The notes: generated by a model from the letters alone, not told the origin. 64,000 bases of DNA from a virus (IMGVR_UViG_3300037245_002806:35906-99905); one strand, 5' to 3'. Positions 14,622 through 64,000 are shown, counted from the stretch's first letter. Numbers and translations: made by a program.

Positions 14622-15296
14622 TTAACAAAGCCCTTTTATGGCCCTCGCCACTTCGTTTAACTCGATCTCGCTAAAATGGTTGCAGGGGTAATCAAAATGC
14701 GCCCACACCTCGAAGCCGCAATCCCGCGCCCGTTCGCAAAAAGAGATATCGTTTCCCCGATCAACCGTACCGTTTGGGTTTAGCTTCCTGGTAAAGGCGC
14801 CGTTCTGCATATTCGGGTCTTCGAAAACTCGCCGCGCAATCAAAAAGCACCCCGTCCCGATGGCGTCCACCTTCTGTAACCCGTCGCGCTCCTGCCATTC
14901 GTTGTAACCCTCCGAACCGTCGCCGTGGATTTTGTAAACGTTCCAATAGATCGGGCGCTCGCCAGGCTTGCCGGTGTAGTGCCAGATCGGAGTAGGCAAC
15001 CCGATAATATCTTTGTCGAACGCCACAAGATCAAGCGGATTTTCTAAGGGTGGATTGTCCGCGTCCATCGAAAGCCAATAATCGTATCCACCTTTTAGGA
15101 AATCTTTAACGATGTGGTGCAAGTTGTTTTCGTAAGGCTTGTTGCTTGGCCATTCGATTTTAACCTTGTACCTTTTGTCCATAGCCAAAAGGAGTAAGCA
15201 CCGGGCTACGGTCTTGTGGATCCAGTGTAAACAAGGAACCGTTATTAGGATGCTTTTTTTATTGTCACGTCCAGAATCTTTTTTGCGTCCCGCCAT
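14622..15296 (-). CDS. GT-A (GT2-like) glycosyltransferase
   Basis: DYWLSMDAD (DxD), DAIGTGCFLI.RRVF, GNDISFCERA...GFEVWAH. Confidence 0.8.
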   Translation of the reverse strand: MAGRKKDSGRDNKKSILITVPCLHWIHKTVARCLLLLAMDKRYKVKIEWPSNKPYENNLHHIVKDFLKGGYDYWLSMDADNPPLENPLDLVAFDKDIIGLPTPIWHYTGKPGERPIYWNVYKIHGDGSEGYNEWQERDGLQKVDAIGTGCFLIARRVFEDPNMQNGAFTRKLNPNGTVDRGNDISFCERARDCGFEVWAHFDYPCNHFSEIELNEVARAIKGLC

Positions 15297-41113: not shown

Positions 41114-41485
41114 TTATTCGCCCCCCTTTGGGGCGGAATCCTCGGCCACCTTGGTCGTGGATCCCTCTACCTTGCCGAATATCCGCCGTTTGACCTTTGG
41201 TTTTTCGGCCTCGATCTCTTTTGGAGCCTCTTGCTTCGGCTCTTCTGGTTTCGGCGCTGGCTTCGGCTCCTCTGGTTTTACCCACTTCGCCGAGCCCTGC
41301 ATTACCAAAACCCCCGCCAGGCTTTGCCCTACCTCTTTCTCCTGGTAGCAAAGCCCAACCTCCAACGTTACTTGCGCCTTGGCGAAAGTAAAAATGCTTC
41401 CTGGGTTCCTGTCAGTGCGTGGCCCCAAGAATAAAAGCCGGCGCTCGCCGATCTTCCAATCCTCGCCGCAACATGGTTTCCCCAT
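41114..41485 (-). CDS. hypothetical protein, Pro/Glu/Lys-rich tail
   Basis: AAGGAAGAG SD; overlaps glycosyltransferase 3' end by 74 nt. Confidence 0.55.
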   Translation of the reverse strand: MGKPCCGEDWKIGERRLLFLGPRTDRNPGSIFTFAKAQVTLEVGLCYQEKEVGQSLAGVLVMQGSAKWVKPEEPKPAPKPEEPKQEAPKEIEAEKPKVKRRIFGKVEGSTTKVAEDSAPKGGE

Positions 41486-42587
41486 GGTCTCTCTTCCTTT
41501 CTATCCACGAAATGAGCCGCCGCGTCGTCGATTCCCAAGTGTAGGTGCGGGCGGTGGATGTGCCATTCTTTCGAATTGCTTCCGCCGCCGGGCTGCCCCA
41601 TTGGTGCACTATTGCCTTCAGGCAAGCGGCCACGCTATCGACCGTTGGTATGTTTTGCTCCCATTCCATGCCGTACCGCATGATCTGTTTTTGCGGCCTC
41701 GGGATCACCACCGCGGTGCTCTCTCGCACGAATTCGGAAAGCCCGCCCACATCGGTGGAGCATACCAGGCAACCCGCCGCCATTGCTTCGAGCGGTGGAA
41801 GCCCGAACCCTTCACCCAAGCTCGGGAACAGAAAAATATCTGCCGTCCCGTATAGCTTGGCCAAGTCTTCGTGCCCCATGTGCCGGGTATCTATGATCAC
41901 CCGCCCGTCACCGTATGGATCCTCGATCGATTGTTTTTTGGGATCGGCCAGGATTTTAACGTATAGCTGCACGGTTTTGGCAATGTCCACCCCGAGCTTA
42001 TCGTTTACCGTGCCACTCAAGGCGCCCCCGAAAGCCTTATTCCACGCCGGCGCCAATAGGCCATGGCCCTTTCTCGGGTTGTTCGCCCCGACGAAAAGTA
42101 CCCGCAACCGTTCGCACCCCGGTCCGGTAAGCATCTTCCGGCTGGTATCGAGATCGCAGAAAAACGGCGCCACCCCCAACGGGTTTACCTCGGAATCGAT
42201 CCCGCTCCCCAAGAAAGTCTTCTGCACGAACTGAGATGGCACCATTATTGCATCGGCTTTTTCGACGTTGCTCGTAATATCGAACCCCTTGCCGCTTTGC
42301 TGCCCGATCACCCTCGACGGCAAAACCGGTGCCTCCCACATGGTAAAGAGTAGGTTTTGCGCCCATTCGAGCCCCGATGGGTCGAACCGGTGCGGTGGGC
42401 AAAAGTGCAAAATCTGGTCGATCCCCGTTTTCCGCAAGTGCCGCTTGTGCTGGTTCGCCGGCCCAATGTCGATCAACTCGACCCCTGCATGTTTGAGCCC
42501 ATAATACAGGTTAACCTGTGTGGTAAGAAAGCCCCGAGCAACGGGATCGTCCCCCGGTAGCTTATATGCGTAAAATCCGATCTTCAT
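41412..42587 (-). CDS. GT-B (GT4-like) glycosyltransferase
   Basis: Start MKIGFY (ATGA overlap); LFTMWE, LFVG...RKG, ADIFLFPSLGEGFGLPPLEAMAAG. Confidence 0.9.
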   Translation of the reverse strand: MKIGFYAYKLPGDDPVARGFLTTQVNLYYGLKHAGVELIDIGPANQHKRHLRKTGIDQILHFCPPHRFDPSGLEWAQNLLFTMWEAPVLPSRVIGQQSGKGFDITSNVEKADAIMVPSQFVQKTFLGSGIDSEVNPLGVAPFFCDLDTSRKMLTGPGCERLRVLFVGANNPRKGHGLLAPAWNKAFGGALSGTVNDKLGVDIAKTVQLYVKILADPKKQSIEDPYGDGRVIIDTRHMGHEDLAKLYGTADIFLFPSLGEGFGLPPLEAMAAGCLVCSTDVGGLSEFVRESTAVVIPRPQKQIMRYGMEWEQNIPTVDSVAACLKAIVHQWGSPAAEAIRKNGTSTARTYTWESTTRRLISWIERKRDHGETMLRRGLEDRRAPAFILGATH

Positions 42588-43207
42588 GCCGCCTCCCCGT
42601 AACGTGCAATCTGCTCGTGGTACCAGTCCATCGCCTCGTCTAAAAACCCCATGGGGTGTCCGTCTATCGTGACCTTCCCATTGGCGTCGTATTCGGCCCG
42701 CTCCGGCCTCGTCCCCTGTGGAAACCCGCTGTTTACCTTCGGCCATTCCTTGCAGAATTGATCGTAAGCCAAAGCATCCGGTAAGGTTTCGAGATGTTTT
42801 GCGACCCGCCAGATCTTGATCCCTCTGTCGAAGTCCTCCTCTATCGGTAGAAAAACGTAATTGTACCGGCCAACGGATTCCTTTAGCGTTTTCCAAAAAG
42901 AAACGGCAGTGGTTCTGGAAGCGTTTCGCCGGCCACCGTTCATCCGTTGCCACCGGGTAATGTATTGCGCCACCGGCGATCGCAACGGGATCACGGTTTT
43001 TACTTCGGGGTGTTCCTGGGTAACTAACCGCAATCGCTCCGCGTCCACATGGTGCGCGGCGTAGCACCTCGAATCGACCGGGCTTGCTAGCATTTTCTCC
43101 AGAGATACCGGCGCATAATTAAAGCACACCTCGATGAGCTTCCGGGTAAAGCCGGTCCCGGTGCCCGGTACGCTGTAAACCAATGCCTTTTTGCCTAGAA
43201 CGTTCAT
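42584..43207 (-). CDS. putative sulfotransferase-fold protein
   Basis: VYSVPGTGTGFTRKLI resembles the 5'-PSB loop; IPLRSPVAQYIT resembles the 3'-PB R.P motif. Confidence 0.5.
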   Translation of the reverse strand: MNVLGKKALVYSVPGTGTGFTRKLIEVCFNYAPVSLEKMLASPVDSRCYAAHHVDAERLRLVTQEHPEVKTVIPLRSPVAQYITRWQRMNGGRRNASRTTAVSFWKTLKESVGRYNYVFLPIEEDFDRGIKIWRVAKHLETLPDALAYDQFCKEWPKVNSGFPQGTRPERAEYDANGKVTIDGHPMGFLDEAMDWYHEQIARYGEAA

Positions 43208-51592: not shown

Positions 51593-54079
51593 CTAAGCCG
51601 GTGCGGGCTCCAATAGAAGCCCTAACTCTTCCAATTCTTCATCCAACTCTTCTACGGCTGCCGTCCAGATATCCTTATAAATCGGGGTGGTTAGCTCGGT
51701 AAGGCTTTCTTTAAATTCTTTCGGGTCGAATGCCAATGCCTGCACCGACGAAGATTCTAGATCCGCGTCCCCGATAAGCTGTAGCTGTGCCCCACGAATT
51801 CGCCAAAATATCTTGTGGATCACCTTGTGGAGTCTTTTTTGCCCCGGCTCCATTACCTTGGCAACTATGTACTCCCAAAGCCGTGTGCGTGCTTCCTCGG
51901 TAACCCAAAGCTGTTTCCCACCCTCGGAATAGGGTATTAGTGCGCATCGACAATTGACCACCTGTTCCGCCGGCGCTCTGGGATCAAGTGGGAATTCGAG
52001 CACCCCCGTCGAACCGATAATCTCGCCGTAATTAAATCCAACCTCTTCTACCTTGCCGTCGAGGGTTTTGTGATCGTCTCGTACCCGTTGATCCCTCGCC
52101 GATAGCCACTGGTTTTGCGGTATCCGCTTCCGCTGCATCTGCACCCGGCGGGCAATGGATGTCATCTGCGCGGATTCGGTAAGCGCCTTGCTCCCCACGT
52201 TCGGCGTGCCGGCCACGAATCGGAACTGCTCACGTACCAAGTCTAGCAACGCCGTCTTCGAAGCTCCCGCGGCCACGCCCTTTTGGAGCGTGAACACCAT
52301 TTTATCTCGAACGGTATCGACGATCCTTTGTACCCGGTTTGCTTGCAGGAAAACTAGCTGCACCGCTTCTCGGTCCGCCTCACTAAACGGCCCTCTGGCC
52401 AGCGGCCCGCTCTCGCTCTCCGGTGGCTCTGCGGGATCTCCCGCCGGCGCGTCCGGATCGGGCTTTCCGTCTCCACCTCCGCTATCACCGCCCCCATCGC
52501 CGTCTCCCTCGTCGCCCGGTGTACCTGGCCCGCCTGGCGTATCGTCGCCGTCGCCGTCGCCGTCCGGCTCTGTCGGCTCTTCCTTTTCCCCGGTAGCGGA
52601 AACAGGGATCATGTTCTGGTTTACCCACCATTTTTGCCGCCATGCCGCCGGCTCGAAACCTAGATCCAACCGCTCGTTTATCTCGTCCGCCGTGAAGCCC
52701 ATCTTCCAAAGGGTTTCGGCCACCTTCGACTTACCTACCAGATCCTCTCGTAACGCTTCGACGTTGCTGGTATCGAAAGCTCCGAATAGCTCGCCCCCGG
52801 TAACCGGCGCGAATAAAAACGAGTCGGTATTGTCTTCGTAATAGGTCATCAACGGCATTAAGGTGTTATCCCAAAATACCCGCTTGGAAACGATGGCGCT
52901 GGCCTTATTAACGTCTTGGAAAATGCCCATTTCGCTTTTCGGTGTTCCGACCACCGCTAACACTTCGTCCCGCACCCACTGCCGGAGTGTAAAATAGTCC
53001 ATGTCCCGCTGAGACATACCGAGCTTTTCTATCTTGGCGTCCCCGTCGAATACCGCCGGCTGGTGCATGTTGTCGATCCCGGTGTAATCCTTCAATAGCT
53101 GCTCTTCGACGTCGGCTTTTTGGGCCGGGTTGATCCCGTTGGCGAATACCATCACCCACGGCAGTTGTGCCCCGCGCTCGAAAAACGCCAGGTTATACCG
53201 CGCTGCATTGTGATCCTGCATTAACTCGATTTTCAAAGCCTCGGCGGGCGCCAACCCCCTTGCCGGGTTGTTGGGATCGAAAAATTTAAAATGCCCGATT
53301 TGGTCGATTTTAAAGGTCTGCTTATTGTCGGTGATCGTTTTATCTTCCAACGTCCATGCCGTGATCCGCTTTTTCTGTGGATCGCGTACCGCCTTCCACC
53401 CTTTCGCCCCATACGGCCAGATCTCGGTAGGAACGAGCTTGGCTTGCTCGGCCCCCTTTGCGGGCTCTGACGGTGGCGACCACTTGCCCCCATCTTTAAG
53501 AGGTACCCAAAACGTCTCGCCGTCGGTGTTCATATAGACGGTGGTAGCTTCCCAAAGCTGGCTCCTGGTCATCTCGGGGTTTACGTCCCGAAATAATTCC
53601 CACCACGGCCCCTCTTCCACCGGCTCGACCCCCACGGCCCGGCAGATCGTCTCCAGAGGTGCAACCGGCGCGAAGCGTCGGATCGTTGTATAAAAGTCCC
53701 TGGCCAACCGGCGCCGCACCCGGTTTCCCTTCGACTCGAATATATCGAAAAGCTCCGGGTTGATGGCTCGATATTGTTGGCAAAGCTCTTTCCACGTGTC
53801 CCGCCTGGTTCGTAGGTTGTTGGCTGTGCTCTGCTCGCCCGTTTCCCGTAGGAGCACAAAAGGCGCCCTCGATAGCGCCGCGGTTGCTCTTTTTACTGCC
53901 GCGTGAAAATAGGCGTGTTGCCTGTAAGGGTTCGTTAGCGCCTTCTCACCTAGCTTGGTTCGGGAGTTTAAAAAGAATGAGTTATCGACCGGCCCGGCTG
54001 CGGTTTTATTGCTTCTAGCGAAAGATGAGGCGTCTAAATGTATAATTTTACGGGTTTCGCCTCGCACGTTTGGCATCAT
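51593..54079 (-). CDS. portal protein fused to MuF/SPP1-gp7-like head morphogenesis domain
   Basis: NP.MT..QLW, IGHFK.FDP....GL.P, FF..GA, T.DE..E.L.LG; then W.S..D.RVR..H..LDG and FP.DP......NCRC. Confidence 0.92.
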   Translation of the reverse strand: MMPNVRGETRKIIHLDASSFARSNKTAAGPVDNSFFLNSRTKLGEKALTNPYRQHAYFHAAVKRATAALSRAPFVLLRETGEQSTANNLRTRRDTWKELCQQYRAINPELFDIFESKGNRVRRRLARDFYTTIRRFAPVAPLETICRAVGVEPVEEGPWWELFRDVNPEMTRSQLWEATTVYMNTDGETFWVPLKDGGKWSPPSEPAKGAEQAKLVPTEIWPYGAKGWKAVRDPQKKRITAWTLEDKTITDNKQTFKIDQIGHFKFFDPNNPARGLAPAEALKIELMQDHNAARYNLAFFERGAQLPWVMVFANGINPAQKADVEEQLLKDYTGIDNMHQPAVFDGDAKIEKLGMSQRDMDYFTLRQWVRDEVLAVVGTPKSEMGIFQDVNKASAIVSKRVFWDNTLMPLMTYYEDNTDSFLFAPVTGGELFGAFDTSNVEALREDLVGKSKVAETLWKMGFTADEINERLDLGFEPAAWRQKWWVNQNMIPVSATGEKEEPTEPDGDGDGDDTPGGPGTPGDEGDGDGGGDSGGGDGKPDPDAPAGDPAEPPESESGPLARGPFSEADREAVQLVFLQANRVQRIVDTVRDKMVFTLQKGVAAGASKTALLDLVREQFRFVAGTPNVGSKALTESAQMTSIARRVQMQRKRIPQNQWLSARDQRVRDDHKTLDGKVEEVGFNYGEIIGSTGVLEFPLDPRAPAEQVVNCRCALIPYSEGGKQLWVTEEARTRLWEYIVAKVMEPGQKRLHKVIHKIFWRIRGAQLQLIGDADLESSSVQALAFDPKEFKESLTELTTPIYKDIWTAAVEELDEELEELGLLLEPAPA

Positions 54080-54860: not shown

Positions 54861-56888
54861 GTGCTTATTCTATGGAGTACCGACCGCCAACGCTTCGAAG
54901 CAAAAAGCGAGTACCACGAACGCAACGCCCTTTCGCAGGCTGGCTTTCGATGGGATCCCAAAGCATATTGCTGGCATAGCTCCGACGAATATAAGGCCGC
55001 TCGCCTTATCGACCATGCCACCGATGGAGCCCGCGCCCGTCTCGAAAAAGCCGAAACCGAAAGGCAAGAGACCGTCGAGAAGTCCCGCGCCATTGACATG
55101 GATATCGAGGTACCCGCGCCCGCCGGCTTGCAGTATAAGCCCTTCCAACGTGGCGGAATCGCTTGGACCCTGGCCCAACGCCGGGTATTAATCGGCGACG
55201 AAATGGGCTTGGGCAAAACCATCGAGGTGTTAGGCGCGATCAACTGTGACCCCTCGATGCAACGTGTTCTCGTGATCTGCCCCGCTTCGCTAAAAATAAA
55301 CTGGCGAAAAGAAGCAAGCAAGTGGCTCGTCCGGAAATTCGAGATCGATATCCTGCACGGTACCAAGGGTTTTCGCCCGGCCCCGACCGACCCGACCGCC
55401 GGCCACATGGTGATCGTTAATTACGATATCTTGAAAAAGCACTCCGCCGCGCTCCGCTCGGTGAAGTGGGATCTGCTGGTTTCCGACGAATGCCACATGA
55501 TCAAAAACCCCAAAGCCCAACGGACAAAACAGATAATCGGCGATTGGGACAAAAAGAGTAAAAGCTGGAAGGTGGAGCCACTTAAATCGACCACCGCCGC
55601 CTTTCTTACCGGTACCCCGATCCAAAATAAACCGGTGGAGCTTTTTACGATTCTCCACTACCTTGACCCGAAATCCTTCCCCTCTTGGTGGTCCTACACC
55701 GGCAGGTTTTGCAATCGCCAACAAACCCGGTGGGGTCTCGATGTTACGGGATCAAGCAATCTAGGCGAACTGCAAGAATTGCTCCGATCCACGGTAATGA
55801 TTCGCCGGCTTAAAAAAGACGTCCTTACCGAACTTCCGCCAAAGCAACGCCAGATCCTCGAAATCGCCCCCAACGGTAGCGCCGGCGCTGTGAAGAGGGA
55901 ATCCGAGGTATGGGCTCGCGTCCAAAACGAGCTTGTGGAGCTTGCCGCGGCTGTCGAGCTTGCCAAGGCGTCGGAAAACTTGGAAGAATACAAAGAAGCG
56001 GTTGCCGCCCTTCGCGCCGGCCAACTGGTAGCGTTTAACGAAATGTCGAAGGTGCGGCATGAGACCGCCGTTGCCAAAGTGCCCGCGGTAATCTCGCACC
56101 TCGCATCCCTGGTAAACGACGATCCCACCGCCCGGAAGCCCACCCCGAACGGTTACAAAGTCGTGGTTTTTGGCCACCATGTGGATGTGATCAAGGCGAT
56201 TAAAGAAGCCTTCGGGGATCGCGCGGTGCTCTTTTATGGCTCGACCAAAATGGAAGATAGAGACGCCGCGGTAGAACGTTTCCAGAATGACCCCACTTGC
56301 CAGATCTTTATTGGGCAAACGCAAGCGGCTGGCGTCGGGATCACCCTGACCGCTTCCTCGCATGTGGTTTTCGCCGAACTGGATTGGGTACCCGGTGCCC
56401 TTACCCAAGCGGAAGATCGTTGCCACCGGATCGGGCAGCATGACAATGTCCTGGTCCAGCATATCGTCTTAGAGGGTTCGCTAGACGCCACCATGGCCGA
56501 TCGTATCGTGGAAAAGCAGGAAGCAATCGACGCCGCGTTAGATGACCCGATCGGGGATATCGACCGAAAGATTGTGGTACTCCCCACCGCCAAGGTTGCC
56601 ACCGCTTCCACCTCTCGAAAGAAGGTAGAAGAAATCGCCGCCACTTTGGAGCCCGGTACCATTGAGGCAATCCATACCGCGCTCGGTGTCCTGGCCGCCT
56701 CGTGCGATGGCGCCTTGTCCCTCGATGGGATGGGTTTTAACAAAATGGATTCCCGCATTGGGAAATCGCTTGCCGCGGCCCCCAGGTTGAGCCCAAAGCA
56801 AGCGGCCCTCGGGCAACGTCTCGTTAATAAATACCGCGGCCAACTCGTGCCGTCCCTGGTAGAAACCGCAACGCAGAAAGGAGCCTAA
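54861..56888 (+). CDS. SNF2/SWI2-family helicase (HARP/SMARCAL1-like)
   Basis: GDEMGLGKT, ICPASLK.NW, DECH, LTGTPIQN, MIRRLK.DVL.ELP.K, GVGITLT, QAEDRCHRIGQ. Confidence 0.95.
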   Translation: MLILWSTDRQRFEAKSEYHERNALSQAGFRWDPKAYCWHSSDEYKAARLIDHATDGARARLEKAETERQETVEKSRAIDMDIEVPAPAGLQYKPFQRGGIAWTLAQRRVLIGDEMGLGKTIEVLGAINCDPSMQRVLVICPASLKINWRKEASKWLVRKFEIDILHGTKGFRPAPTDPTAGHMVIVNYDILKKHSAALRSVKWDLLVSDECHMIKNPKAQRTKQIIGDWDKKSKSWKVEPLKSTTAAFLTGTPIQNKPVELFTILHYLDPKSFPSWWSYTGRFCNRQQTRWGLDVTGSSNLGELQELLRSTVMIRRLKKDVLTELPPKQRQILEIAPNGSAGAVKRESEVWARVQNELVELAAAVELAKASENLEEYKEAVAALRAGQLVAFNEMSKVRHETAVAKVPAVISHLASLVNDDPTARKPTPNGYKVVVFGHHVDVIKAIKEAFGDRAVLFYGSTKMEDRDAAVERFQNDPTCQIFIGQTQAAGVGITLTASSHVVFAELDWVPGALTQAEDRCHRIGQHDNVLVQHIVLEGSLDATMADRIVEKQEAIDAALDDPIGDIDRKIVVLPTAKVATASTSRKKVEEIAATLEPGTIEAIHTALGVLAASCDGALSLDGMGFNKMDSRIGKSLAAAPRLSPKQAALGQRLVNKYRGQLVPSLVETATQKGA

Positions 56889-56893
56889 GCAAA

Positions 56894-57124
56894 ATGGAAA
56901 CTGAAGCTAAAATCGCCGGTCGTGGCCGGCCAACGATCGGCCCCGGTGGCCGGAAGGGGATCGCCACCTATTGCATGTTGGAGCCCCGGTACCGTGAAGC
57001 CCTGGCACTGCTCGCCGAAAGAGACGCCCGGAACCTCTCGAACTACTTGCGCCGGGTTGTTACGCAACATATCGACGAAATTGCCAAGGAAGATCTGTCC
57101 GTCCGCGCCGCGCTCGGGCTGTGA
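56894..57124 (+). CDS. ribbon-helix-helix DNA-binding protein
   Basis: GRP motif, beta strand IATYCML then LAERDARNLSNYLRRVV; AAGGAG SD. Confidence 0.75.
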   Translation: METEAKIAGRGRPTIGPGGRKGIATYCMLEPRYREALALLAERDARNLSNYLRRVVTQHIDEIAKEDLSVRAALGL

Positions 57125-57180: not shown

Positions 57181-57213
57181 AAAAAGGGGTGGGTTGTCTA
57201 CCTACCCCTTTTT
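57181..57213. terminator. bidirectional intrinsic terminator
   Basis: AAAAAGGGGTGGGT-loop-ACCTACCCCTTTTT between convergent genes. Confidence 0.8.
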
Positions 57214-57218
57214 ATGGG

Positions 57219-59207
57219 TCAGTCAAAGCTCCGCCTAGCCGCTTCGAGCACCCCTGCCGCGTAGGAACGCTCCGCAAAATATGCCCCTCGGCAATCGGGC
57301 GCGCGCCCTGAGTCGAGCTTATCGGTGTAATTCGAGACCACCGCCGCGTTGGGATGGGACGAAAGCGCGTCGGCATCGTTCGCGCTGTCGCCAACGTAAA
57401 GCACGGCGTCCGGGTTGACCCCTCGCCGTACCATCCACCACCGCATTGCCGGCCACTTGCCCGACCGAATTGGGATCACGTCGGCAATGGCGCCATTGTG
57501 GGAAACGAGCACCTTGCACCGCACACCCTTCAACTTTTCCTGTAACCTGGCGCCGGCGCTGGCCCCGTAGAGCGCAAAGGAAGCCTTAAAAGGGTTGAAG
57601 TGCGGATCTGCCGTGTAGGGTTCCACCCCAGGAAGCTCCGCCCCGAGCGCCCGTATTTCCTCCACCCACCCTAGCCAGATGGACCCGTAAAGCCACTCAT
57701 TCCAGTCTTTGTCGAGCACATACCCTCCGTCGTCTCGGTAATCCCAGATGCCGCCGCCCACCGCCTCGATTATCAACCGGCTGTAGCGATCCAACTCCTT
57801 CCCCGCCCCCAGTTTTAATGCTTCGCCAAGGCGCTCGACCGTCCGCCCGGTAACGATCCCGAGCTTGATCCCCCGGTGTTCTAGCCACTCGACCAACTCG
57901 ATTATATCGGTCTCGGCGCCCCCATTTAAAGTACCGTCGAAATCCGCTAACATCCACCGTTCCGGGCTCGCCCCCGTTGGCTCGAATCTCGGAATAAACC
58001 CCTTGGGCGCTTTCTCGAAGAGCTTCTCAAGTCTCGCCGCGTGGGTATCCCAACTCCACTCCTCGTAAGTCGCGCCGGCTTCCATGTATGTATGGTAATC
58101 GGCCTGTATCTTGCTGAGAGCCCGTTCTAGCCCTTCCTGGGTTCCATCGTAGGACAAACCATGCCCTATGTGCCTTACGACGGTCTCAGCGGCTGTCCCG
58201 GCCCGGACGATGCACGGTAGGCCGCACTTGGCCGCTTCTAGGATGACCATTCCGTAGGTTTCGCTTGGACATGGGTGGACGAATACCCCGCCGAACCTTG
58301 CCGCCCGGCGCATAAACGCCGCTGTCATCCCATGGCTGTGGGTAGGTGGAGCACAAACCGAGCCCCAAAGCCCGAACCCGTCCACCTTGCCGAGCACCTT
58401 TTCCCGATAGGGATCCGGCTGGAAAGTCCGCTGCCCCATGAGTAGGTGCAAAGTGTAATCCCGCCAGATGCCGCCGGCGTAAAGCTCGACCAACTCGGCA
58501 AACTGTTTCCGGGGATCGCTCCGACCGACCGCCAGGATCGGCGGTACGTCTATCCGTTCTCGGCACCAAAACCTTACCGAGGTTTCCGCCGTTGCCAAGT
58601 CGCTCGCGTTGGGCTCTGTTATGTCGCTATCCGGTGGAATTACCACCACCTCCGCCCGGCCTAGCTGGTAATCACCCCGTAGCCGGTCCGCTTCGAATTG
58701 CGTCGAGACCGTTACCACGTCGGCCCGGCTGGTGATTAGATCCTCCATGTGGATTCGGTTGGGTTCCGACCGCCCGGTTTTGGCTTCCTTGTATCGCCCC
58801 GTACTATGTGGCGTCCAGAATAGGCGCCCTCCGGTAACCTCTTGGACCCGCATTGCCGCCCATCCCCCGAGAAAACTATGCCCGTGGAGAATGTCGAACC
58901 CTGAGTAATGGTAAACGACGTAACCCACGATCTCGTCTACGTACCGTTCGATCTCCGTCTTCCATAGGTCTGGCCCGCCGCGGGTTGGGACGAACATTAT
59001 GGTCACGCCGGCCTGGGTGGTCGGTTTTCCATATTCCGGGCAGTCCTTTCGCTTCTGGTCCCTGGTAAAAACCAAAACCTCGTGGCCCCTCGCCGCTTGG
59101 GCTCGCGCCAACTCTGGTACGTACTTTTCCATTCCCCCGGTATCTTTCGCCCCTAGTTGTGGCCAATGATCAACGTGGCCGTGGATGCAAAAATGTGCAA
59201 TTCTCAT
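57219..59207 (-). CDS. sucrose-phosphate synthase-like GT-B fused to HAD-IIB (SPP-like) phosphatase
   Basis: Start MRIAHF (ATGA overlap); IHG...LG..DTGG..KYV.ELA, WTPHS.G..K, ETYGMVILEAA.CGLP; DFDGTL, VTGR, K, GDSAND. Confidence 0.85.
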   Translation of the reverse strand: MRIAHFCIHGHVDHWPQLGAKDTGGMEKYVPELARAQAARGHEVLVFTRDQKRKDCPEYGKPTTQAGVTIMFVPTRGGPDLWKTEIERYVDEIVGYVVYHYSGFDILHGHSFLGGWAAMRVQEVTGGRLFWTPHSTGRYKEAKTGRSEPNRIHMEDLITSRADVVTVSTQFEADRLRGDYQLGRAEVVVIPPDSDITEPNASDLATAETSVRFWCRERIDVPPILAVGRSDPRKQFAELVELYAGGIWRDYTLHLLMGQRTFQPDPYREKVLGKVDGFGLWGSVCAPPTHSHGMTAAFMRRAARFGGVFVHPCPSETYGMVILEAAKCGLPCIVRAGTAAETVVRHIGHGLSYDGTQEGLERALSKIQADYHTYMEAGATYEEWSWDTHAARLEKLFEKAPKGFIPRFEPTGASPERWMLADFDGTLNGGAETDIIELVEWLEHRGIKLGIVTGRTVERLGEALKLGAGKELDRYSRLIIEAVGGGIWDYRDDGGYVLDKDWNEWLYGSIWLGWVEEIRALGAELPGVEPYTADPHFNPFKASFALYGASAGARLQEKLKGVRCKVLVSHNGAIADVIPIRSGKWPAMRWWMVRRGVNPDAVLYVGDSANDADALSSHPNAAVVSNYTDKLDSGRAPDCRGAYFAERSYAAGVLEAARRSFD

Positions 59208-59881
59208 GCCTTCCTCTCTTCCCAACTCTGTTCGACGTTCGTTATGTGCCCGTGGTTTTTGCAATCGTAAACCCCGCGGTAACTTACCACTTGCCGCCTT
59301 GGATTCGATGTGCATAGGCTCTTCATTTGCATGTGTCGAAGCGGGCTCGGCATTGCCCCATATATCGGAAACGAGGTTTCCCAAGCAAAATGCCGGACAA
59401 ACATATCGAATCCGCCCACCTCTGGTCGTGACTCGATAAAGTCGGCCATTCTACGTAATGCCGGCTTGTCGAATAGCACCGCTTGGGAACCCCAAAAAGT
59501 CGATGGTTTTAACCGGTAAAAACCGGCTGGTAGGATCCCCGCAATTGCCTGTTTGGCGATTTTCCCCTCCGGTATCTGTGGGCTCATCACGGCCATGGAA
59601 ACGAGAGGATACAAGCTCGCCGCTGTTTCCATGATCTCGGAGAAGCCCGGCGCCAGGCAAACGTCTGACTCTAGCCACATGTACCCGCCGGCCTTCTGGT
59701 TTAGTAGCCACGCCACGGCGCGCCGGCTCTGCTGTTTAAAAAAACTAAGCCCTTGCTTTGCACTCTTCGGGTGGTCGCTCTCGAAAAAAAAGACGTTCAA
59801 CCCTTCCCGCCGGCAATCGGCTTCAAAAGAAACCGTATCGGCGCCTCGTACCCTGGGAGATGCAATTGCCACCTTGATCAT
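59204..59881 (-). CDS. GT-A glycosyltransferase (GT25-like)
   Basis: WLESDVCL, FWGSQAVLF, FD, PS...H; ATGA overlap. Confidence 0.6.
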   Translation of the reverse strand: MIKVAIASPRVRGADTVSFEADCRREGLNVFFFESDHPKSAKQGLSFFKQQSRRAVAWLLNQKAGGYMWLESDVCLAPGFSEIMETAASLYPLVSMAVMSPQIPEGKIAKQAIAGILPAGFYRLKPSTFWGSQAVLFDKPALRRMADFIESRPEVGGFDMFVRHFAWETSFPIYGAMPSPLRHMQMKSLCTSNPRRQVVSYRGVYDCKNHGHITNVEQSWEERKA

Positions 59882-60477
59882 AAAAACCTCCAAAGCCCGA
59901 GGTGCTTTTCCTTGTCTGACTCCATTGTGCTGTGCTCGTGGATCAACGCCACCGGTGGGCCAAAATTAAAGGGCTCGGCTCGAAGGTTGATCTCGTACCA
60001 CCCGCCCGGCTTGATCGGTACGTTGGTCGCGCCCGGAAATGTTGTGGTAAGTAGCCACTCCGCCCCGCCCTTCAAGTGCTCGATTGCCTGGTGTGCCTGC
60101 TCCCACGATAAATGCCCCAAAAGGTCTCGGCAGATTATTAAATCGGCTCCTCGTGGGGGGAGGGGGTCTTCTACAATGTCGTGCCAAAAGAATCTCAGGG
60201 CCCCCTTCGAGATTTGCTGGTTTGCCGCGATCACGGCTGGAACCACATCGGCCCCGATGTATTCCACGCCCTCGGGGAATTCGATCCTCTGCATCCAATT
60301 AAAGTCGCCGCATGGCAAGTCGAGCACCGTTTTAGCCCCGGTCTCGATGACCACCTCTGGGATCGCCCGTTCGATTGTCTTGGTCTGGTCTCGGTCGGAC
60401 CCGCGGCCAGATCTCGACTCTCGCCCGCGCCACCGGTTTCGCTCGTAGAAGTCGCTCCAGAGGGTTTCGCTTATCAT
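59878..60477 (-). CDS. class I SAM-dependent methyltransferase
   Basis: SGRGS, VLDLPCGDFNWM, YIGADVV, DLIICRD.L.HL; ATGA overlap. Confidence 0.85.
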   Translation of the reverse strand: MISETLWSDFYERNRWRGRESRSGRGSDRDQTKTIERAIPEVVIETGAKTVLDLPCGDFNWMQRIEFPEGVEYIGADVVPAVIAANQQISKGALRFFWHDIVEDPLPPRGADLIICRDLLGHLSWEQAHQAIEHLKGGAEWLLTTTFPGATNVPIKPGGWYEINLRAEPFNFGPPVALIHEHSTMESDKEKHLGLWRFL

Positions 60478-60983
60478 CGGCCATTCTCCATCGGAACCCA
60501 CGCCCGCCGGTATCGGTATTTCGAAAGGTCGCGCATTTTAAAAAAGTCGTTGCTCCCCATCAAAAGCTCTACCTCTATATCACTGCCCCCGATGCCGGCC
60601 CGGATCTGCTCTTTCGTATACCCGTGCTCGTGTGCCAAGCGCCGCACCACGTCTCCCATTTTAAGCGCCACGTGCTTCCCCTTCGCACGGTTCATCCGGA
60701 TTGTTAGGAGCATCGCTTCTGGATCGGGGATATCGAGTAGGACCACCGGAACCAACCCGCCGTACTTGCCGAGCATCGGTTTCGATGTGGTTGCTAACAT
60801 GTATCGGTGGAACCCGTCGATAATTAAAAGCCGGGTGTTGGCGATAATCGGTTGCACCCACCCCGCCGCCATTATGTTGGCTTCGAGTAGTTTTAGCTCG
60901 GGCTCGAAAACGATATTCGGATTATAGTCGTTTGGCCGTAGCTTTTTGGCCACGATCCATTTAACGCTGTCGATTGGATCCAT
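60474..60983 (-). CDS. ParB/Srx-like domain protein (IbrB-like)
   Basis: PNDYNPN, GW.QPI, IIDGFHR, TIRMNRAKGKH. Confidence 0.88.
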   Translation of the reverse strand: MDPIDSVKWIVAKKLRPNDYNPNIVFEPELKLLEANIMAAGWVQPIIANTRLLIIDGFHRYMLATTSKPMLGKYGGLVPVVLLDIPDPEAMLLTIRMNRAKGKHVALKMGDVVRRLAHEHGYTKEQIRAGIGGSDIEVELLMGSNDFFKMRDLSKYRYRRAWVPMENGR

Positions 60984-62028
60984 GCTTTCTCCCCTTTTTC
61001 CTGGCCGGTAGCGGCGATGTCATGTGGCTAACCCCGTTGTAAACTTTCCGTAAGGTCTCTTTTACGGTGTAGCTCTGCGGGGATCGCCGCGCCAAAACCT
61101 CATTATCGAGGATAAACTGCAAGCACTTGGCCAACGTTACCCCGTCGAAGTGTTCCCTGGCGTACCGCCGGCACCCGTCCCACCCTTCGGCCTCGTAGGC
61201 TTTGAGCCTCTTGTATCTGTCGTATTCGCCGTCGTACCTGGCCACTACCGCGATTTCCGGAACCAACCCGAGACCCTTGGCATAAAGCTCGGGATCCATC
61301 TGGTCTAACCTGGCGATTTGCGCCGCCGCATGTGGGGAAAATGGCACCGCTAGCCGTAACGCCGCGCCGGCGATCAACGCGGAGTTATACCACCGCGCCG
61401 GCTGCACCCCGCATTCGGAAAGATATTTCAGAACGTCGTTTTCCGTCCAGTCGTAAAGCGGTTTTACCAGTTTTATGTCTTTGTGGGCGGTGGCGTTTAT
61501 GTAGTTCTCGTTGAGCTTGTTTACCACGCTCCGGTATCTGGCCAAGCTCTCTTCGGCCCGGACGCCCATTACAAAGCCGATCTTGCCTTTGAGACCCTTA
61601 ACGAGCCACCGATCACTTTCTAGCCACGAATCGAAAAGCTCGCCCGGCATCTCTGCAAAGCTCGGTGGCTGCCGGAACCACTCGCGCTCGGTGTCCCAAG
61701 CAAAAACCGTCCGGTTGTCATGGAAGATCCCGACGTCTTTCCGCTGCCGGAAGCATACCCACCGTAAGTCTAGCCACGGCTGTTTGTGGTACCAAAGCAC
61801 ATTGTCGATCGCGCTCTGCGGAATAAACTCCTCGTCTCGGAAGATAGCCCGCACCGGCCCCAGGTTGTGATCCTCGTGCACCGCCTTGGCAAGGTGGAGC
61901 ATCGCTTGGCTATCCTTGCCGCCGCTGAACATATAAACGAGGTTGTCGAAAGTCTCCTCGATGTGCTCGACCCTTTGGTAGGCCGCTTCCAAAACCGAGA
62001 TCTCGAGATACCGTCTTACCCTTGCCAT
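60961..62028 (-). CDS. PAPS-reductase-family PP-loop protein (IbrA-like)
   Basis: FSGGKDS, F.DEE, GVRAEES..R, PLYDW...DV. Confidence 0.88.
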   Translation of the reverse strand: MARVRRYLEISVLEAAYQRVEHIEETFDNLVYMFSGGKDSQAMLHLAKAVHEDHNLGPVRAIFRDEEFIPQSAIDNVLWYHKQPWLDLRWVCFRQRKDVGIFHDNRTVFAWDTEREWFRQPPSFAEMPGELFDSWLESDRWLVKGLKGKIGFVMGVRAEESLARYRSVVNKLNENYINATAHKDIKLVKPLYDWTENDVLKYLSECGVQPARWYNSALIAGAALRLAVPFSPHAAAQIARLDQMDPELYAKGLGLVPEIAVVARYDGEYDRYKRLKAYEAEGWDGCRRYAREHFDGVTLAKCLQFILDNEVLARRSPQSYTVKETLRKVYNGVSHMTSPLPARKKGRKHGSNRQR

Positions 62029-62112
62029 GCCGGAAGCTCCCAAGTCTTTGGAATTGCTTCCAAAGTACTCTCATCCGGTCCGCTCGTCCGGGCTCGCGGG
62101 TACCGATCGGGT

Positions 62113-62148
62113 AAAGAAAAAGGGCGCCCCGTTGTGCTAGGGCGCCCC
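62113..62148 (-). terminator. intrinsic terminator upstream of modification operon
   Basis: GGGCGCCC-loop-GGGCGCCC followed by TTTTTCTTT. Confidence 0.7.
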
Positions 62149-62212
62149 GATTGTGGAGGCTGCGTTTTTTTCTCTCCGACCGCCAAGTAGGAAAGATTGT
62201 TGCTACCCTTGC

Positions 62213-62242
62213 AGGATAACCCGCGCCCCATGTTTTTGTCAA
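62213..62242 (-). promoter_or_regulatory. sigma70-type promoter overlapping terminase stop
   Basis: TTGACA-18nt-TATCCT. Confidence 0.55.
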
Positions 62243-63627
62243 GCATTGACTATTATCTTGTCCCTTCTACCAACTTTCCGTACCCCGCTAACCCGCTTCC
62301 ACTCCGGCACCCTCTGGTTGTTTACGACCGCCCACCACCCGATCAAGCACGCCATAACGATATCGTCATGGAAGCCCGTCGCCGCTTCGAAAGTCCAGTG
62401 CCCGCTTTTGTTGATCGTGTACTCGAAATTCTCGTGCTCGGTGTAAAGGTCTGGCCACTTGTCCCGGCTTGGGATCAACGGCTCTCGATTGCGAAGTGCC
62501 AACCCCCATTGGTGCACCAATGCCGGCTTGTTGCCCCCCGTAGTGGTAAACCCTTCCTCGCCGCTCGGCCCCTTCCCTAACGGAATCCCGCGGAGCTTCA
62601 ACCGCTGTACTATCGGAAGCCCCGGCCCGTTGCGCTCGACAAAAACCGTGGCATGGTTCCACGCCTTGCTGAGATAGACAATATCCTCCTCGATCAACGT
62701 GTAGTCCCGCCCCTGGGCAACTGCCCACGATACCAAAGAAGCGTCGAAAACATCCCAGATCGTGATCACGTTCCGATCTCGGATCTGCCCCACGTCAACC
62801 GAGATTATGTAAAAGTGCCCCGGCGTCGGCCCGTTCCTGGGTAACGTCGGTGTGCTGCATGGCATTAGGTCGGGGAAAGTCGTGGCCGTTTGGGAGATAA
62901 ACTCCGCCATGACCATTTCGCGGTAGATAAACTCTGGCACCGCTCGCCGGGTTTGGTCTAGTACCTGGCGATCCATGTTGGGGTTTGCAACCGAGGTGTA
63001 CCGCTTAAAATAATAATCCGGCTCATCGTTCCACGCTTTTTTGCACTGCTGGTAAAACCAATTGCGCCCGTGTGGGGTGGAAGTCGCCATGATCCAACCC
63101 CCGGTCGCCATAACGGTGGAAACCGTAATATTAAACACCTCTTCCCGTAGCCGGCTGGCCTCGTCTAGGATGGCTCCGTCTACGTCGTCACCCGGTAAGG
63201 TATCGGTCCGCTCGCCCGAATAAAAGGCAACTTGGGAGCCCATCGGCCCGGTGATGGTGTTGGCTTTGGCGCTGTAGTCGTAATACCCCTTCGGCATTAT
63301 TCGGAGTATCCGTTGCTTGGCCATTTCCGATTGACCATGGAACGGAGCGATCCACCGGTACCGTTTATCCCTGGTTTCCCATAGGAGCTTGCACGTCCGG
63401 AGTACCGCCGTCGTGGTTTTCCCGGCTTTGGTCCCCCACGCCAGGAAGTTAAACCGCGCTGGTAGCTCTGACTCTACAAGCTCGCGCTGGTAGTCGTATG
63501 GCGAGACGATAAGCTGGCGGAGTCGTTTATCGCGGGGATCTCCCGCTACTTTGGAAGGTGGATCGGTGATCTCGTCGGTACCGGTCCGGTCGTAATAGGT
63601 TGGGAAGGTCTTCGCCGGCGCCGCCAC
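62239..63627 (-). CDS. terL: terminase large subunit
   Basis: YDYQ, GTKAGKTT (Walker A variant), AILDEASR (Walker B), STPHGRNWFY, ISVDVG, HDDIVMA. Confidence 0.93.
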   Translation of the reverse strand: MAAPAKTFPTYYDRTGTDEITDPPSKVAGDPRDKRLRQLIVSPYDYQRELVESELPARFNFLAWGTKAGKTTTAVLRTCKLLWETRDKRYRWIAPFHGQSEMAKQRILRIMPKGYYDYSAKANTITGPMGSQVAFYSGERTDTLPGDDVDGAILDEASRLREEVFNITVSTVMATGGWIMATSTPHGRNWFYQQCKKAWNDEPDYYFKRYTSVANPNMDRQVLDQTRRAVPEFIYREMVMAEFISQTATTFPDLMPCSTPTLPRNGPTPGHFYIISVDVGQIRDRNVITIWDVFDASLVSWAVAQGRDYTLIEEDIVYLSKAWNHATVFVERNGPGLPIVQRLKLRGIPLGKGPSGEEGFTTTGGNKPALVHQWGLALRNREPLIPSRDKWPDLYTEHENFEYTINKSGHWTFEAATGFHDDIVMACLIGWWAVVNNQRVPEWKRVSGVRKVGRRDKIIVNA

Positions 63628-63636
63628 TTGCCACCG

Positions 63637-63954
63637 CTATCGTTTCGGCTTTGCAACTAACCTGGCGAGTCTTCGAAGAATCCCCCTCGATTTCTTCTGT
63701 GGCGCCGTTGTGAGTACCCGGTCTTGGGCTCGCTTCCCTGGGCTCGGTGCCCCGATGGCCCGGTTGTCTGCCCAATCGGATTTGCTATGTACCATAGTGG
63801 AACCCTCCTGCGGTTTCTGTAGTTTTAGTCTGTGCTCTTTAACGTATCGCCTTACAAGCTCGTCGAAAAGCTCGTCCGATATTAGGTGCATGCCGGCTTC
63901 ATCGTTGTGGGGTTTTACCACTATTTGATCCTTGGATCGCCGACGGTTGCCCAC
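63637..63954 (-). CDS. hypothetical protein upstream of terminase (start uncertain)
   Basis: Same strand, 9 nt from terL; no small-terminase motif recognised. Confidence 0.45.
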   Translation of the reverse strand: MGNRRRSKDQIVVKPHNDEAGMHLISDELFDELVRRYVKEHRLKLQKPQEGSTMVHSKSDWADNRAIGAPSPGKRAQDRVLTTAPQKKSRGILRRLARLVAKPKR

Positions 63955-64000
63955 GGGCTCGGGATCCGGGGTTGGTATCCGAATCCCGACCCGCTTTCTA

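Follow-up and report, generated by a model that had tools for sequence, protein, structure and literature searches.

Known DNA glycosylation requires a hydroxymethylase of the thymidylate synthase type or a TET/JBP dioxygenase. ParB-like proteins bind DNA, and DpdB/DpdA is one of the modification systems in which such a protein assists the modifying enzyme. The products of SPS/SPP-type enzymes are free small molecules, and we know of no step joining such a product to DNA. For the IbrA/IbrB family, a historical annotation carried by phage records, no biochemical activity is, to our knowledge, experimentally known. The ParB-dependent T-dioxygenase pathways of phages co-occur with glycosyltransferases (31%), ParB proteins (27%), terminases (19%), and also O-methyltransferases (PMC13229309), and DndB is the ParB-like partner of the PP-loop enzyme DndC (PMC10853773). 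The locus described here resembles these ParB-assisted systems in the pairing of a ParB-like protein with a candidate DNA-acting enzyme, but contains no dioxygenase, TGT, or Dnd/Ssp partner. Like the phage pathways for sugar hypermodification of DNA (T4 glucosyl-hmC; the MT/5mYOX/GT clusters, bioRxiv 10.1101/2023.12.21.572611), it has glycosyltransferase genes grouped with genes associated with DNA in the vicinity of the terminase.

The locus belongs to an uncultured phage of about 100 kb (complete genome of 99.9 kb), which was analyzed in a window of 64,000 nucleotides, and consists of a five-gene minus-strand unit located directly after terL (Table 1). The start of g1 is separated by 210 nt from the end of terL, which lies upstream. 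As claimed by an earlier sequence-only reading of the window, the five genes overlap, by 23 nt for g1 and g2 and by ATGA junctions for g2/g3, g3/g4, and g4/g5, and are located between terL and the portal gene, an interval that additionally contains an RHH-like ORF, a plus-strand SNF2 helicase gene, and a 181-aa ORF. A 4-nt overlap of the ATGA type is possible for 11 of the 88 adjacent co-directional ORF pairs of the genome, three of the 11 being in the five-gene cluster (p = 0.003, roughly, for three of four junctions, estimated from the remaining 8 of 84 pairs). Phage genes commonly overlap irrespective of function.

The unit is bracketed by two intrinsic terminators. The closing one, already described as bidirectional, folds strongly on both strands. 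The other, located in the gap between terL and g1, is a putative element insulating the unit from terL or attenuating its transcription. The proposal that the unit has a promoter of its own fared less well: one promoter-like site was present, but the hairpin separates this site from g1 and the number of promoter-like sites in the region (3 versus 2.3 in shuffles) was not in excess.

Table 1. Position of the five genes, neighboring packaging genes, and candidate transcription signals in the window.
Feature	Coordinates	Strand	Basis
g1: IbrA-like PP-loop ATP-pyrophosphatase, PAPS-reductase clan, 355 aa	60961..62028	-	phrog_2302 3e-69, PF01507 1.5e-9
g2: ParB/Srx-like, IbrB-like protein, 169 aa	60474..60983	-	phrog_2159 1e-55
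g3: class I SAM-dependent methyltransferase, small-molecule/sugar type, 199 aa	59878..60477	-	phrog_3382 7e-38
g4: near-orphan, probably GT-A fold glycosyltransferase (GT25-like), 225 aa	59204..59881	-	ESM Atlas neighbors
g5: GT4 + HAD-IIB sugar-phosphate phosphatase fusion (SPS/SPP-like), 662 aa	57219..59207	-	Glyco_trans_4_4 1e-24, S6PP 6e-24
terL, immediately upstream of g1	62239..63627	-	Terminase_6N 2.8e-11, phrog_2 3e-33
Portal gene	51593-54079		Confirmed by domain search
Promoter-like site TTGACA-18-TATCCT	62213..62242	-	10/12 positions match; overlaps terL stop codon
Terminator-like hairpin + T-run, terL-g1 gap	62121..62148	-	10 pairs, 8 G-C; -21.5 kcal/mol, z -3.0
Bidirectional intrinsic terminator (A5-hairpin-T5) closing the unit	57187..57210	both	z -4.2 minus strand, z -5.1 plus strand

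The assignment of g1 and g2 to the PAPS-reductase-like and ParB-like proteins was borne out by matches to PAPS_reduct and phrog_2302 and to phrog_2159, respectively. The phrog_2302 match extended over the full length of g1 (residues 1-336). The SGGKDS motif of g1 was invariant in 85 relatives, as were D65, E67, R157, E160, S161, R164, D193, D198, Y214, and R225. The alignment of these relatives contained no invariant cysteine, and no cysteine column was conserved above 59/85. Identification of g1 as a Dnd/Ssp phosphorothioation enzyme of the DndC/SspD type was rejected since the conserved cysteines of DndC are absent and the DndC profile match (0.0013) was far below cut-off. For g2, the DGxHR and NPN motifs were invariant in 74 relatives, with conservation of D56, G57, H59, and R60; the Pfam search returned no match for this protein.

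IbrA and IbrB form an obligate pair, usually kept by phages beside terminase genes, in agreement with the earlier description of a terminase-linked PP-loop/ParB module. A homologue of g2 was found directly downstream from the g1 homologue in 78 of 80 sampled IMG/VR loci, the two exceptions stopping at a contig edge. The pair adjoins terL in Mycobacterium phage Compostia and Arthrobacter phage Salgado. The next two ORFs following the pair in the sampled IMG/VR loci (n = 125) included about 22 terminase large subunits and about 12 terS/HTH-like proteins. The pair occupies the usual place of terS, and separate terS-like genes follow it in many loci. The genes g1 and g2 conform to this cassette in being full-length matches that are adjacent, co-directional, and overlapping, and in their terminase-side position, as in the Mycobacterium B3 phages. 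They differ from it in two respects. The pair is here downstream from terL, whereas it is elsewhere upstream from terS/terL, and it is translationally coupled to genes for a methyltransferase, a GT-A enzyme, and an SPS/SPP-like enzyme. None of the 80 loci contained homologues of g3, g4, or g5, or sugar genes.

The IbrA/IbrB pairs of other phages have small-molecule enzymes or importers, of varying type, inserted within or attached to them. Genes for GNAT acetyltransferases and TauD-family dioxygenases were located between those of IbrA and IbrB (loci L026, L032, L033, L035, and L080), and cupin, GNAT, and GGACT genes and genes for SSF and TctC importers adjoined the pair. Fusion proteins containing IbrA were looked for and none was found, a result that provides weak evidence.

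The description of g5 as an SPS/SPP-like enzyme was confirmed by detection of GT4 and S6PP domains. No catalytic motif of a retaining GT4 glycosyltransferase or of a HAD-IIB sugar-phosphate phosphatase is missing from the predicted protein, the conserved motifs being DxDGT, TGR, K, GDSxND, E-x7-E, and DTGG. The closest relatives of known structure were SPS (6KIH and 2R60), MshA (3C4Q), and SPP (1S2O), MshA being equally close. This architecture and these motifs are shared with bacterial SPS containing a C-terminal SPP-like domain, and fit the logic of MshA/MshA2. In contrast to the bacterial enzymes, g5 is phage-encoded and coupled to IbrA/IbrB; the identity is only 25-29%, and its matches to TIGR02472 and TIGR02471 were far below the NCBIfam equivalog cut-offs (114.2 versus 576 bits and 81.5 versus 209.75 bits, respectively).

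Viral SPS/SPP-like genes were searched for by three differently seeded pattern scans of IMG/VR (2.9 million viral contigs). A single other virus containing such a gene was detected, with the gene order ParB - SPS-like GT4 - S6PP - ParB - IbrA - IbrB - sigma factor - terS-like - terL. The SPS and SPP genes of this second phage are thus sandwiched between ParB genes; there is no other glycosyltransferase gene nearby, and g3 and g4 are absent. The GC content of the second phage is 45% versus 57% for the phage under study, and the terL and portal genes of the two phages display no similarity. The SPS of the second phage is 41-42% identical to bacterial SPS, whereas g5 is no more than 25-28% identical to everything compared. 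The IbrA proteins of the two phages are not sisters in the tree. Because the second phage is unrelated, the SPS differ, and the IbrA proteins are not sisters, the association of an SPS/SPP-like gene with IbrA/IbrB probably arose twice. The link between them rests on one independent co-occurrence. None of 80 bacterial SPS-like loci contained IbrA, IbrB, or ParB within 6 kb. Since the one further viral gene of this type that was found is inside such a cassette, against none of the bacterial loci, a functional connection with IbrA/IbrB is probable for at least the SPS/SPP-like gene.

The gene-neighborhood search proposed in the sequence-only reading therefore gave a divided answer: the full five-gene set did not recur, as g3 and g4 were found neither in the second phage nor in the 80 loci, and the co-occurrence was partial, the other viral SPS/SPP-like gene being inside an IbrA/IbrB cassette. 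The statement that the gene combination corresponds to no described system holds. Since a second, unrelated phage has the same rare pairing, joint action of the cassette genes is probable, with phage DNA as a possible target.

These data also bear on the possibility that g5 belongs, along with g3 and g4, to an auxiliary metabolic module producing a free sucrose-like or methylated glycoside within the infected cell, as an osmolyte or a carbon sink, and inserted by chance at a terminase-side hot spot. The architecture and intact motifs of g5 fit osmolyte synthases, the related bacterial genes, from Chitinophagaceae and others, are chromosomal and have no phage neighbors, and moron genes often adjoin packaging genes. 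We nevertheless consider this explanation improbable since two unrelated phages carry the same rare gene type within the same cassette, g3 to g5 are tightly coupled translationally to g2, and no SPS-like gene was found in 50,697 phage records.

The assignment of g3 to the class I methyltransferases was substantiated by its phrog match, and a DNA-methyltransferase motif was not visible in its sequence. The top phage match of g3, gp17 of Mycobacterium phage Ariel (34% identity, 1.5e-29), is encoded among three glycosyltransferase genes between capsid and connector genes. Another top match, prophiGD91-2 gp76, belongs to a run of glycosyltransferase and methyltransferase genes located just upstream from the terminase and portal genes. 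Since relatives of g3 are found in actinophage glycosyltransferase cassettes, virion glycosylation is the main rival explanation. Two unrelated modules would then be neighbors, IbrA/IbrB having a terminase-associated role of its own and g3 to g5, perhaps with a GT4 enzyme encoded at 41412-43067, decorating proteins of the capsid or tail with a methylated glycan, in the manner of Che8-like and cluster J mycobacteriophages. Glycosylation of the Che8 virion is documented according to Freeman 2023, as cited in PMC11256854 and PMC13445384. The location of this second GT4 gene inside the structural operon and the lack of sugar genes in the 80 other IbrA/IbrB loci are also in favor of this explanation, as is the clustering of a g3-homologous methyltransferase gene with glycosyltransferase genes beside packaging or structural genes in the Che8 (cluster F) and cluster J (e.g. 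Ariel) cassettes. However, the latter cassettes contain neither an SPS/SPP-like enzyme nor an IbrA/IbrB pair, and blastp and phmmer revealed no similarity between g4 or g5 and the glycosyltransferases of Ariel or prophiGD91-2. Moreover, the combination of an SPS/SPP-type GT4 with a phosphatase suggests a phosphorylated small-molecule acceptor rather than a protein, and the SPS/SPP genes of the second phage lie between ParB genes of an IbrA/IbrB cassette, with no other glycosyltransferase gene near. On balance, virion glycosylation appears rather unlikely.

Only two clear homologues of g4 were found among 1.84 billion representatives. The earlier GT25-like label was retained in part. It agrees with the nearest ESM Atlas clusters, which are viral and some of which carry PF01755 (87% of one cluster, TM 0.74), but the Pfam GT25 profile (PF01755) gave no match at E <= 10 for g4 or three homologues. 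This profile detected nothing in the phage genome. The AF2 model of g4 was poor (pLDDT 58.7), searches for PDB folds gave Z < 5 with no DNA glycosyltransferase among the matches listed, and weak matches to the Mimivirus glycosyltransferase R655 were repeatedly obtained. The L-E-[SD]-D-[VI] motif is conserved in g4 (L-E-[SD]-D-V). Based on these structural neighbors, g4 is probably a glycosyltransferase of the GT-A fold, GT25-like.

Combinations of GT-A, GT4, and O-methyltransferase genes are typical of envelope glycan loci, and a cyanophage relative of g3 is located within a large cluster of sugar-nucleotide and glycosyltransferase genes. It is nonetheless very improbable that g3 to g5 act independently from IbrA/IbrB to bring about superinfection exclusion by modifying a glycan of the host envelope (lipopolysaccharide, teichoic-acid-like polymer, or capsule), as the unit encodes no flippase, undecaprenyl-phosphate glycosyltransferase, or membrane protein, no lysogeny genes were seen among the annotated genes, and the IbrA/IbrB link in the second phage speaks against independence.

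Since the only other viral SPS/SPP-like gene was inside an IbrA/IbrB cassette and the bacterial loci were devoid of this association, we tentatively propose that the five genes are transcribed late as a single unit and represent a new form of the IbrA/IbrB cassette widespread in phages, one that supplies a sugar, the most likely target being the phage's own DNA. In this sugar-supplying cassette, g5 would form a glycoside in two steps, as do SPS/SPP or MshA/MshA2, by transfer from an NDP-sugar to a phosphorylated acceptor followed by dephosphorylation. A further sugar would be added by g4, and g3 would O-methylate the sugar. The PP-loop enzyme g1 would use ATP to activate or attach the sugar product, and the ParB-like g2 would bring this enzyme to nucleic acid. 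We infer both that DNA is the target and that the modification is coupled to packaging, taking place at about that time.

The cassette differs from the known pathways for DNA sugars in that the known acceptor is missing, since hydroxymethylase and TET/JBP enzymes were not detectable: PF00303 (ThyA-type) and PF12851 (TET/JBP) gave no match at E <= 1 in the complete genome, the TET/JBP control being weak and many genes having no Pfam match. Contigs encoding glycosyltransferases without either enzyme have been rated less likely to specify DNA pathways (bioRxiv 10.1101/2023.12.21.572611). A bolder and more doubtful version of the proposal is that a PP-loop adenylating enzyme, guided by ParB-like proteins, places a methylated di- or oligosaccharide made by the phage directly on a base or on the backbone of DNA, with no hydroxymethyl-pyrimidine as intermediate. 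The sugar branch would then be one of several interchangeable modules supplying substrates to IbrA/IbrB, alongside importers, GNAT, and TauD-type enzymes. Such a mechanism, if true, would add a new class to the nucleic-acid modifications of phages.

The source record is 99,905 bp long, and the window corresponds to its right-hand 64 kb. The ends of the record overlap by 24 bp, indicating a circular assembly, and CheckV rated the genome as 100% complete. Most proteins of this phage had no match in Pfam, and close-relative scans performed with terL, g4, and g5, each alone, detected no close relative in IMG/VR; the phage is a singleton. A 768-aa protein displayed a weak GH5 cellulase-like match (5e-5) and may be a tail-associated glycan depolymerase. 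The five overlapping genes g1 to g5, located downstream from terL, were as described in the sequence-only reading: the coordinates, the 23-nt overlap between g1 and g2, and the three ATGA junctions (g2/g3, g3/g4, and g4/g5) were all confirmed. Genome-wide, overlaps of the ATGA type are possible in 11 of the 88 adjacent co-directional ORF pairs, and three of these 11 lie within g1 to g5.

Coordinates of the g1–g5 unit and of neighboring features in the window
Feature	Position	Strand	Remark
ORFs upstream of terL	63637-63954; genome 231-986 and 1837-2742	-	locus L007; the latter two lie outside the window (which ends at 64000), past the circular junction
terL	63627..62239	-	directly upstream of unit
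Promoter-like match plus hairpin, terL-g1 spacer	62105-62242	-	match overlaps terL stop codon; spacer of 210 nt
Strong terminator-like hairpin	62148..62121	-	after promoter-like match
g1, IbrA-like PP-loop	62028..60961	-	
g2, IbrB-like ParB/Srx	60983..60474	-	
g3, methyltransferase	60477..59878	-	
g4, probable GT-A	59881..59204	-	
g5, SPS/SPP-like	59207..57219	-	
Closing terminator, A5-hairpin-T5	57187-57210	both	z -4.2 and -5.1
61-aa ORF	56885-57070	-	
SNF2-family helicase	54861-56888	+	phrog_62, 6e-111
Portal gene fused to Mu F-like domain	54079..51593	-	Phage_portal 2e-40; Phage_Mu_F 2e-8
Second GT4	41412-43067	-	Glycos_transf_1 6e-15
768-aa protein	17292-19598	-	

The unit had also been credited with a promoter of its own and a closing bidirectional terminator. 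The latter proposal was borne out, as the A5-hairpin-T5 element folds on both strands. The former was only partly sustained: a promoter-like match exists, but a hairpin stands between it and g1. This hairpin follows the promoter-like site within about 65 nt and lies about 90 nt before the start of g1. The two elements could form a leader, an attenuator, or a short RNA; no RNA family was detected by Rfam in the terL-g1 spacer. Delimited by the hairpin before g1 and the terminator after g5, the unit is thus discrete. The interval from the unit to the portal gene contains a 61-aa ORF resembling a ribbon-helix-helix protein, the SNF2 helicase gene, which converges on the latter ORF with a 4-nt overlap, and a 181-aa ORF. 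Upstream from terL, the same strand encodes a 105-aa ORF, a DUF5131 protein (PF07505, 9e-98), and a 301-aa ParB_N protein. Thus, a ParB paralogue and another enzyme flank the other side of terL.

The g1 product matched phrog_2302 end to end (3e-69) and also matched PF01507. Across 85 relatives, the SGGKDS PP-loop is invariant, as are several Asp, Glu, and Arg residues, whereas no Cys is, indicating that g1 is probably an ATP pyrophosphatase or an adenylyltransferase. Other assignments, as a sulfate-assimilation gene, a thiol-dependent PAPS reductase, or a DndC-type sulfur inserter, were rejected owing to the lack of a conserved Cys in the 85 relatives. IbrA/IbrB-like pairs are routinely mis-read as sulfur-metabolism genes (e.g. 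PMC12323421). Solved relatives of g1 (CysD, FAD synthase, TtuA, and CysH) match at motifs only, and searching for extended, fused versions of g1 gave no hit, which is weak evidence. The g2 product matched phrog_2159 (1e-55) and has kept the DGxHR motif of ParB/Srx proteins.

The linkage of such a PP-loop/ParB pair to terminase genes, as initially proposed, was recovered in other phages. The gene order is ParB, further genes, PAPS-reductase-like, ParB-like, and terminase in Mycobacterium phage Compostia, and ParB, PAPS reductase, ParB, methyltransferase, HTH, and terL in Arthrobacter phage Salgado. In Rhizobium phage L338C and Bacillus phage M2, the pair adjoins DNA methyltransferases. Scanning IMG/VR with a profile provided 80 loci among the matches listed. 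Among these, the g2 homologue follows the g1 homologue in 78, another ParB is located just upstream in 31, and an SNF2 helicase is present in six, directly upstream of IbrA. For this last reason, the SNF2 helicase of the window may be part of the same functional neighborhood. Pfam families tallied among the neighbors comprised terminase large subunits, terS/HTH, ParB_N, cupins, GNATs, TauD-type dioxygenases, GGACT, SSF, and TctC transport proteins. In five uncultured phages (L026, L032, L033, L035, and L080), GNAT acetyltransferases and TauD/TfdA-family dioxygenases are encoded between IbrA and IbrB. Based on the pairing of g1 with g2 homologues and on these embedded or attached enzymes, the pair acts as the core of an enzymatic cassette whose accessory genes are interchangeable.

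The g3 product matched phrog_3382 (7e-38) and showed a weak likeness to small-molecule methyltransferases. A DNA methyltransferase was rejected since g3 lacks DPPY/NPPY and C5-methyltransferase motifs and has its relatives in sugar clusters. Ariel gp17 is encoded among three glycosyltransferases, between capsid and connector genes; prophiGD91-2 gp76 lies in a run of glycosyltransferase and methyltransferase genes just before terminase and portal; and a cyanophage homologue belongs to a sugar-nucleotide/glycosyltransferase cluster. The location of these relatives in glycan clusters favors the main alternative to DNA modification, namely that g3 to g5 glycosylate the virion. Virion glycosylation of the Che8 type is documented, according to passages citing it in PMC11256854 and PMC13445384, and the structural gene block of the window's phage encodes a second GT4, a 551-aa protein whose match lies in its C-terminal half. 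In both Salgado and Bacillus phage M2, the methyltransferases adjoining IbrA/IbrB show no similarity to g3.

For g4, two clear homologues were found among 1.84 billion representatives, sharing an L-E-[SD]-D-V motif. A g4 homologue, P0011 (41% identity), is encoded by an 88-kb Logan/ENA contig. In the ESM Atlas, g4 adjoins viral clusters, part of which carry GT25. Pfam and PDB profile searches gave no significant match, the family profile found nothing in IMG/VR, and a word-seeded protein search returned only g4 itself. The AF2 model (pLDDT 58.7) was too poor to confirm a fold, and neither Foldseek nor VIA-align found a convincing one.

The g5 product consists of a GT4 domain fused to an S6PP-type HAD phosphatase. 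It aligns over its full length with bacterial SPS-like proteins (25-29% identity), retains intact DTGG, E-x7-E, DxDGT, TGR, and GDSxND motifs, and scores far under the SPS equivalog cut-offs. With the true start, the ATG at 59207, a conserved N-terminal strand is regained. The database version of the protein (P0002, 637 aa) starts 25 codons downstream (window 59133-59207) and thus lacks this 'IHG...DTGG' strand, which SPS and MshA also have. No relative of g5 was found in 50,697 phage records.

Membership of g3 to g5 in the cassette was supported by some scans and not by others. Against it, homologues of the three genes were absent from all 80 IbrA/IbrB loci among the matches listed, as was a 30-protein panel of phage glycosyltransferases, methyltransferases, and sugar enzymes, for which the positive control worked. 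For it, IMG/VR was scanned from three different seeds, and a single further virus turned up that carries an SPS/SPP-like gene; HAD-seeded scans returned only this viral contig and a bacterial-looking, high-GC metagenome contig of 2.8 kb. The second phage (L091, a 67-kb contig) displays the order ThyX, dNMP kinase, ParB, SPS-like GT4, S6PP, ParB, IbrA, IbrB, sigma factor, terS-like HTH, and terL, with matches of 2e-45 for S6PP, 8e-44 for IbrA, and 1.6e-47 for IbrB. The sigma-70-like factor (14403-15095) lies between IbrB and terS-like/terL, and ThyX and the dNMP kinase are directly upstream from the cassette. The two phages are unrelated (GC content of 45% for L091, no terL or portal similarity). 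The SPS of L091 shares 41-42% identity with bacterial SPS, while g5 shares 25-28% with everything. The two IbrA proteins were not sisters in a quick tree, in which the window branch was long. IbrA, IbrB, and ParB were not found within 6 kb of any of 80 bacterial SPS-like loci, mostly from Chitinophagaceae. Chance insertion is hard to reconcile with the presence of both viral SPS/SPP genes in IbrA/IbrB cassettes. This contrast, two of two viral against none of 80 bacterial loci, suggests that the association arose on at least two occasions. In L091, the SPS/SPP link to the pair recurred, but g3 and g4 were absent and are therefore lineage-specific additions. We filed g1 to g5 as a new variant of an uncharacterized IbrA/IbrB cassette, with a sugar-synthesis branch.

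Motif integrity, the g1-g2 pairing, accessory enzymes within or next to the pair, and the co-occurrence of SPS/SPP in a second phage are established. In the proposed mechanism, g5 would synthesize, via a phosphorylated intermediate, a glycoside that g4 would extend and g3 would methylate. The PP-loop enzyme would use ATP to activate the glycoside or a nucleic-acid site, and the ParB-like protein would supply access to DNA. ParB-like partners play this role for phage T-dioxygenases (PMC13229309) and in Dnd systems (PMC10853773). DNA appears to be the most plausible target of the predicted modification because the pair keeps company with ParB paralogues, SNF2 helicases, DNA methyltransferases, and terminase. 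Hydroxymethyl-pyrimidine acceptors were not detectable in the window's phage or in L091. To our knowledge, such a pyrimidine is the acceptor in all known DNA glycosylation. Pyle et al. (bioRxiv 10.1101/2023.12.21.572611) consider a DNA pathway less likely for glycosyltransferase clusters without enzymes making hydroxymethyl-pyrimidines. Overall, the interpretation given in the sequence-only reading is partly supported, by the terminase-linked pair and the recurring SPS/SPP link, but not by g3 and g4, which do not recur.

Of the unexplained gene pairs found next to phage terminases, those of the IbrA/IbrB type are one of the commoner kinds. The cassette ties this pair to a recognizable sugar pathway, in a rare pairing that recurs in an unrelated phage, and, within reach of the searches made, only one other SPS/SPP-like enzyme besides g5 is encoded by a virus. 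The cassette yields a specific hypothesis, amenable to testing, about the substrate side of IbrA/IbrB, in a compact five-gene unit suited to heterologous expression. If DNA is the target, the cassette would provide a route to glycosylated DNA bypassing 5hmC and 5hmU. If the virion is the target, it would extend phage glycosylation past the actinophages and add an SPS/SPP-type step.
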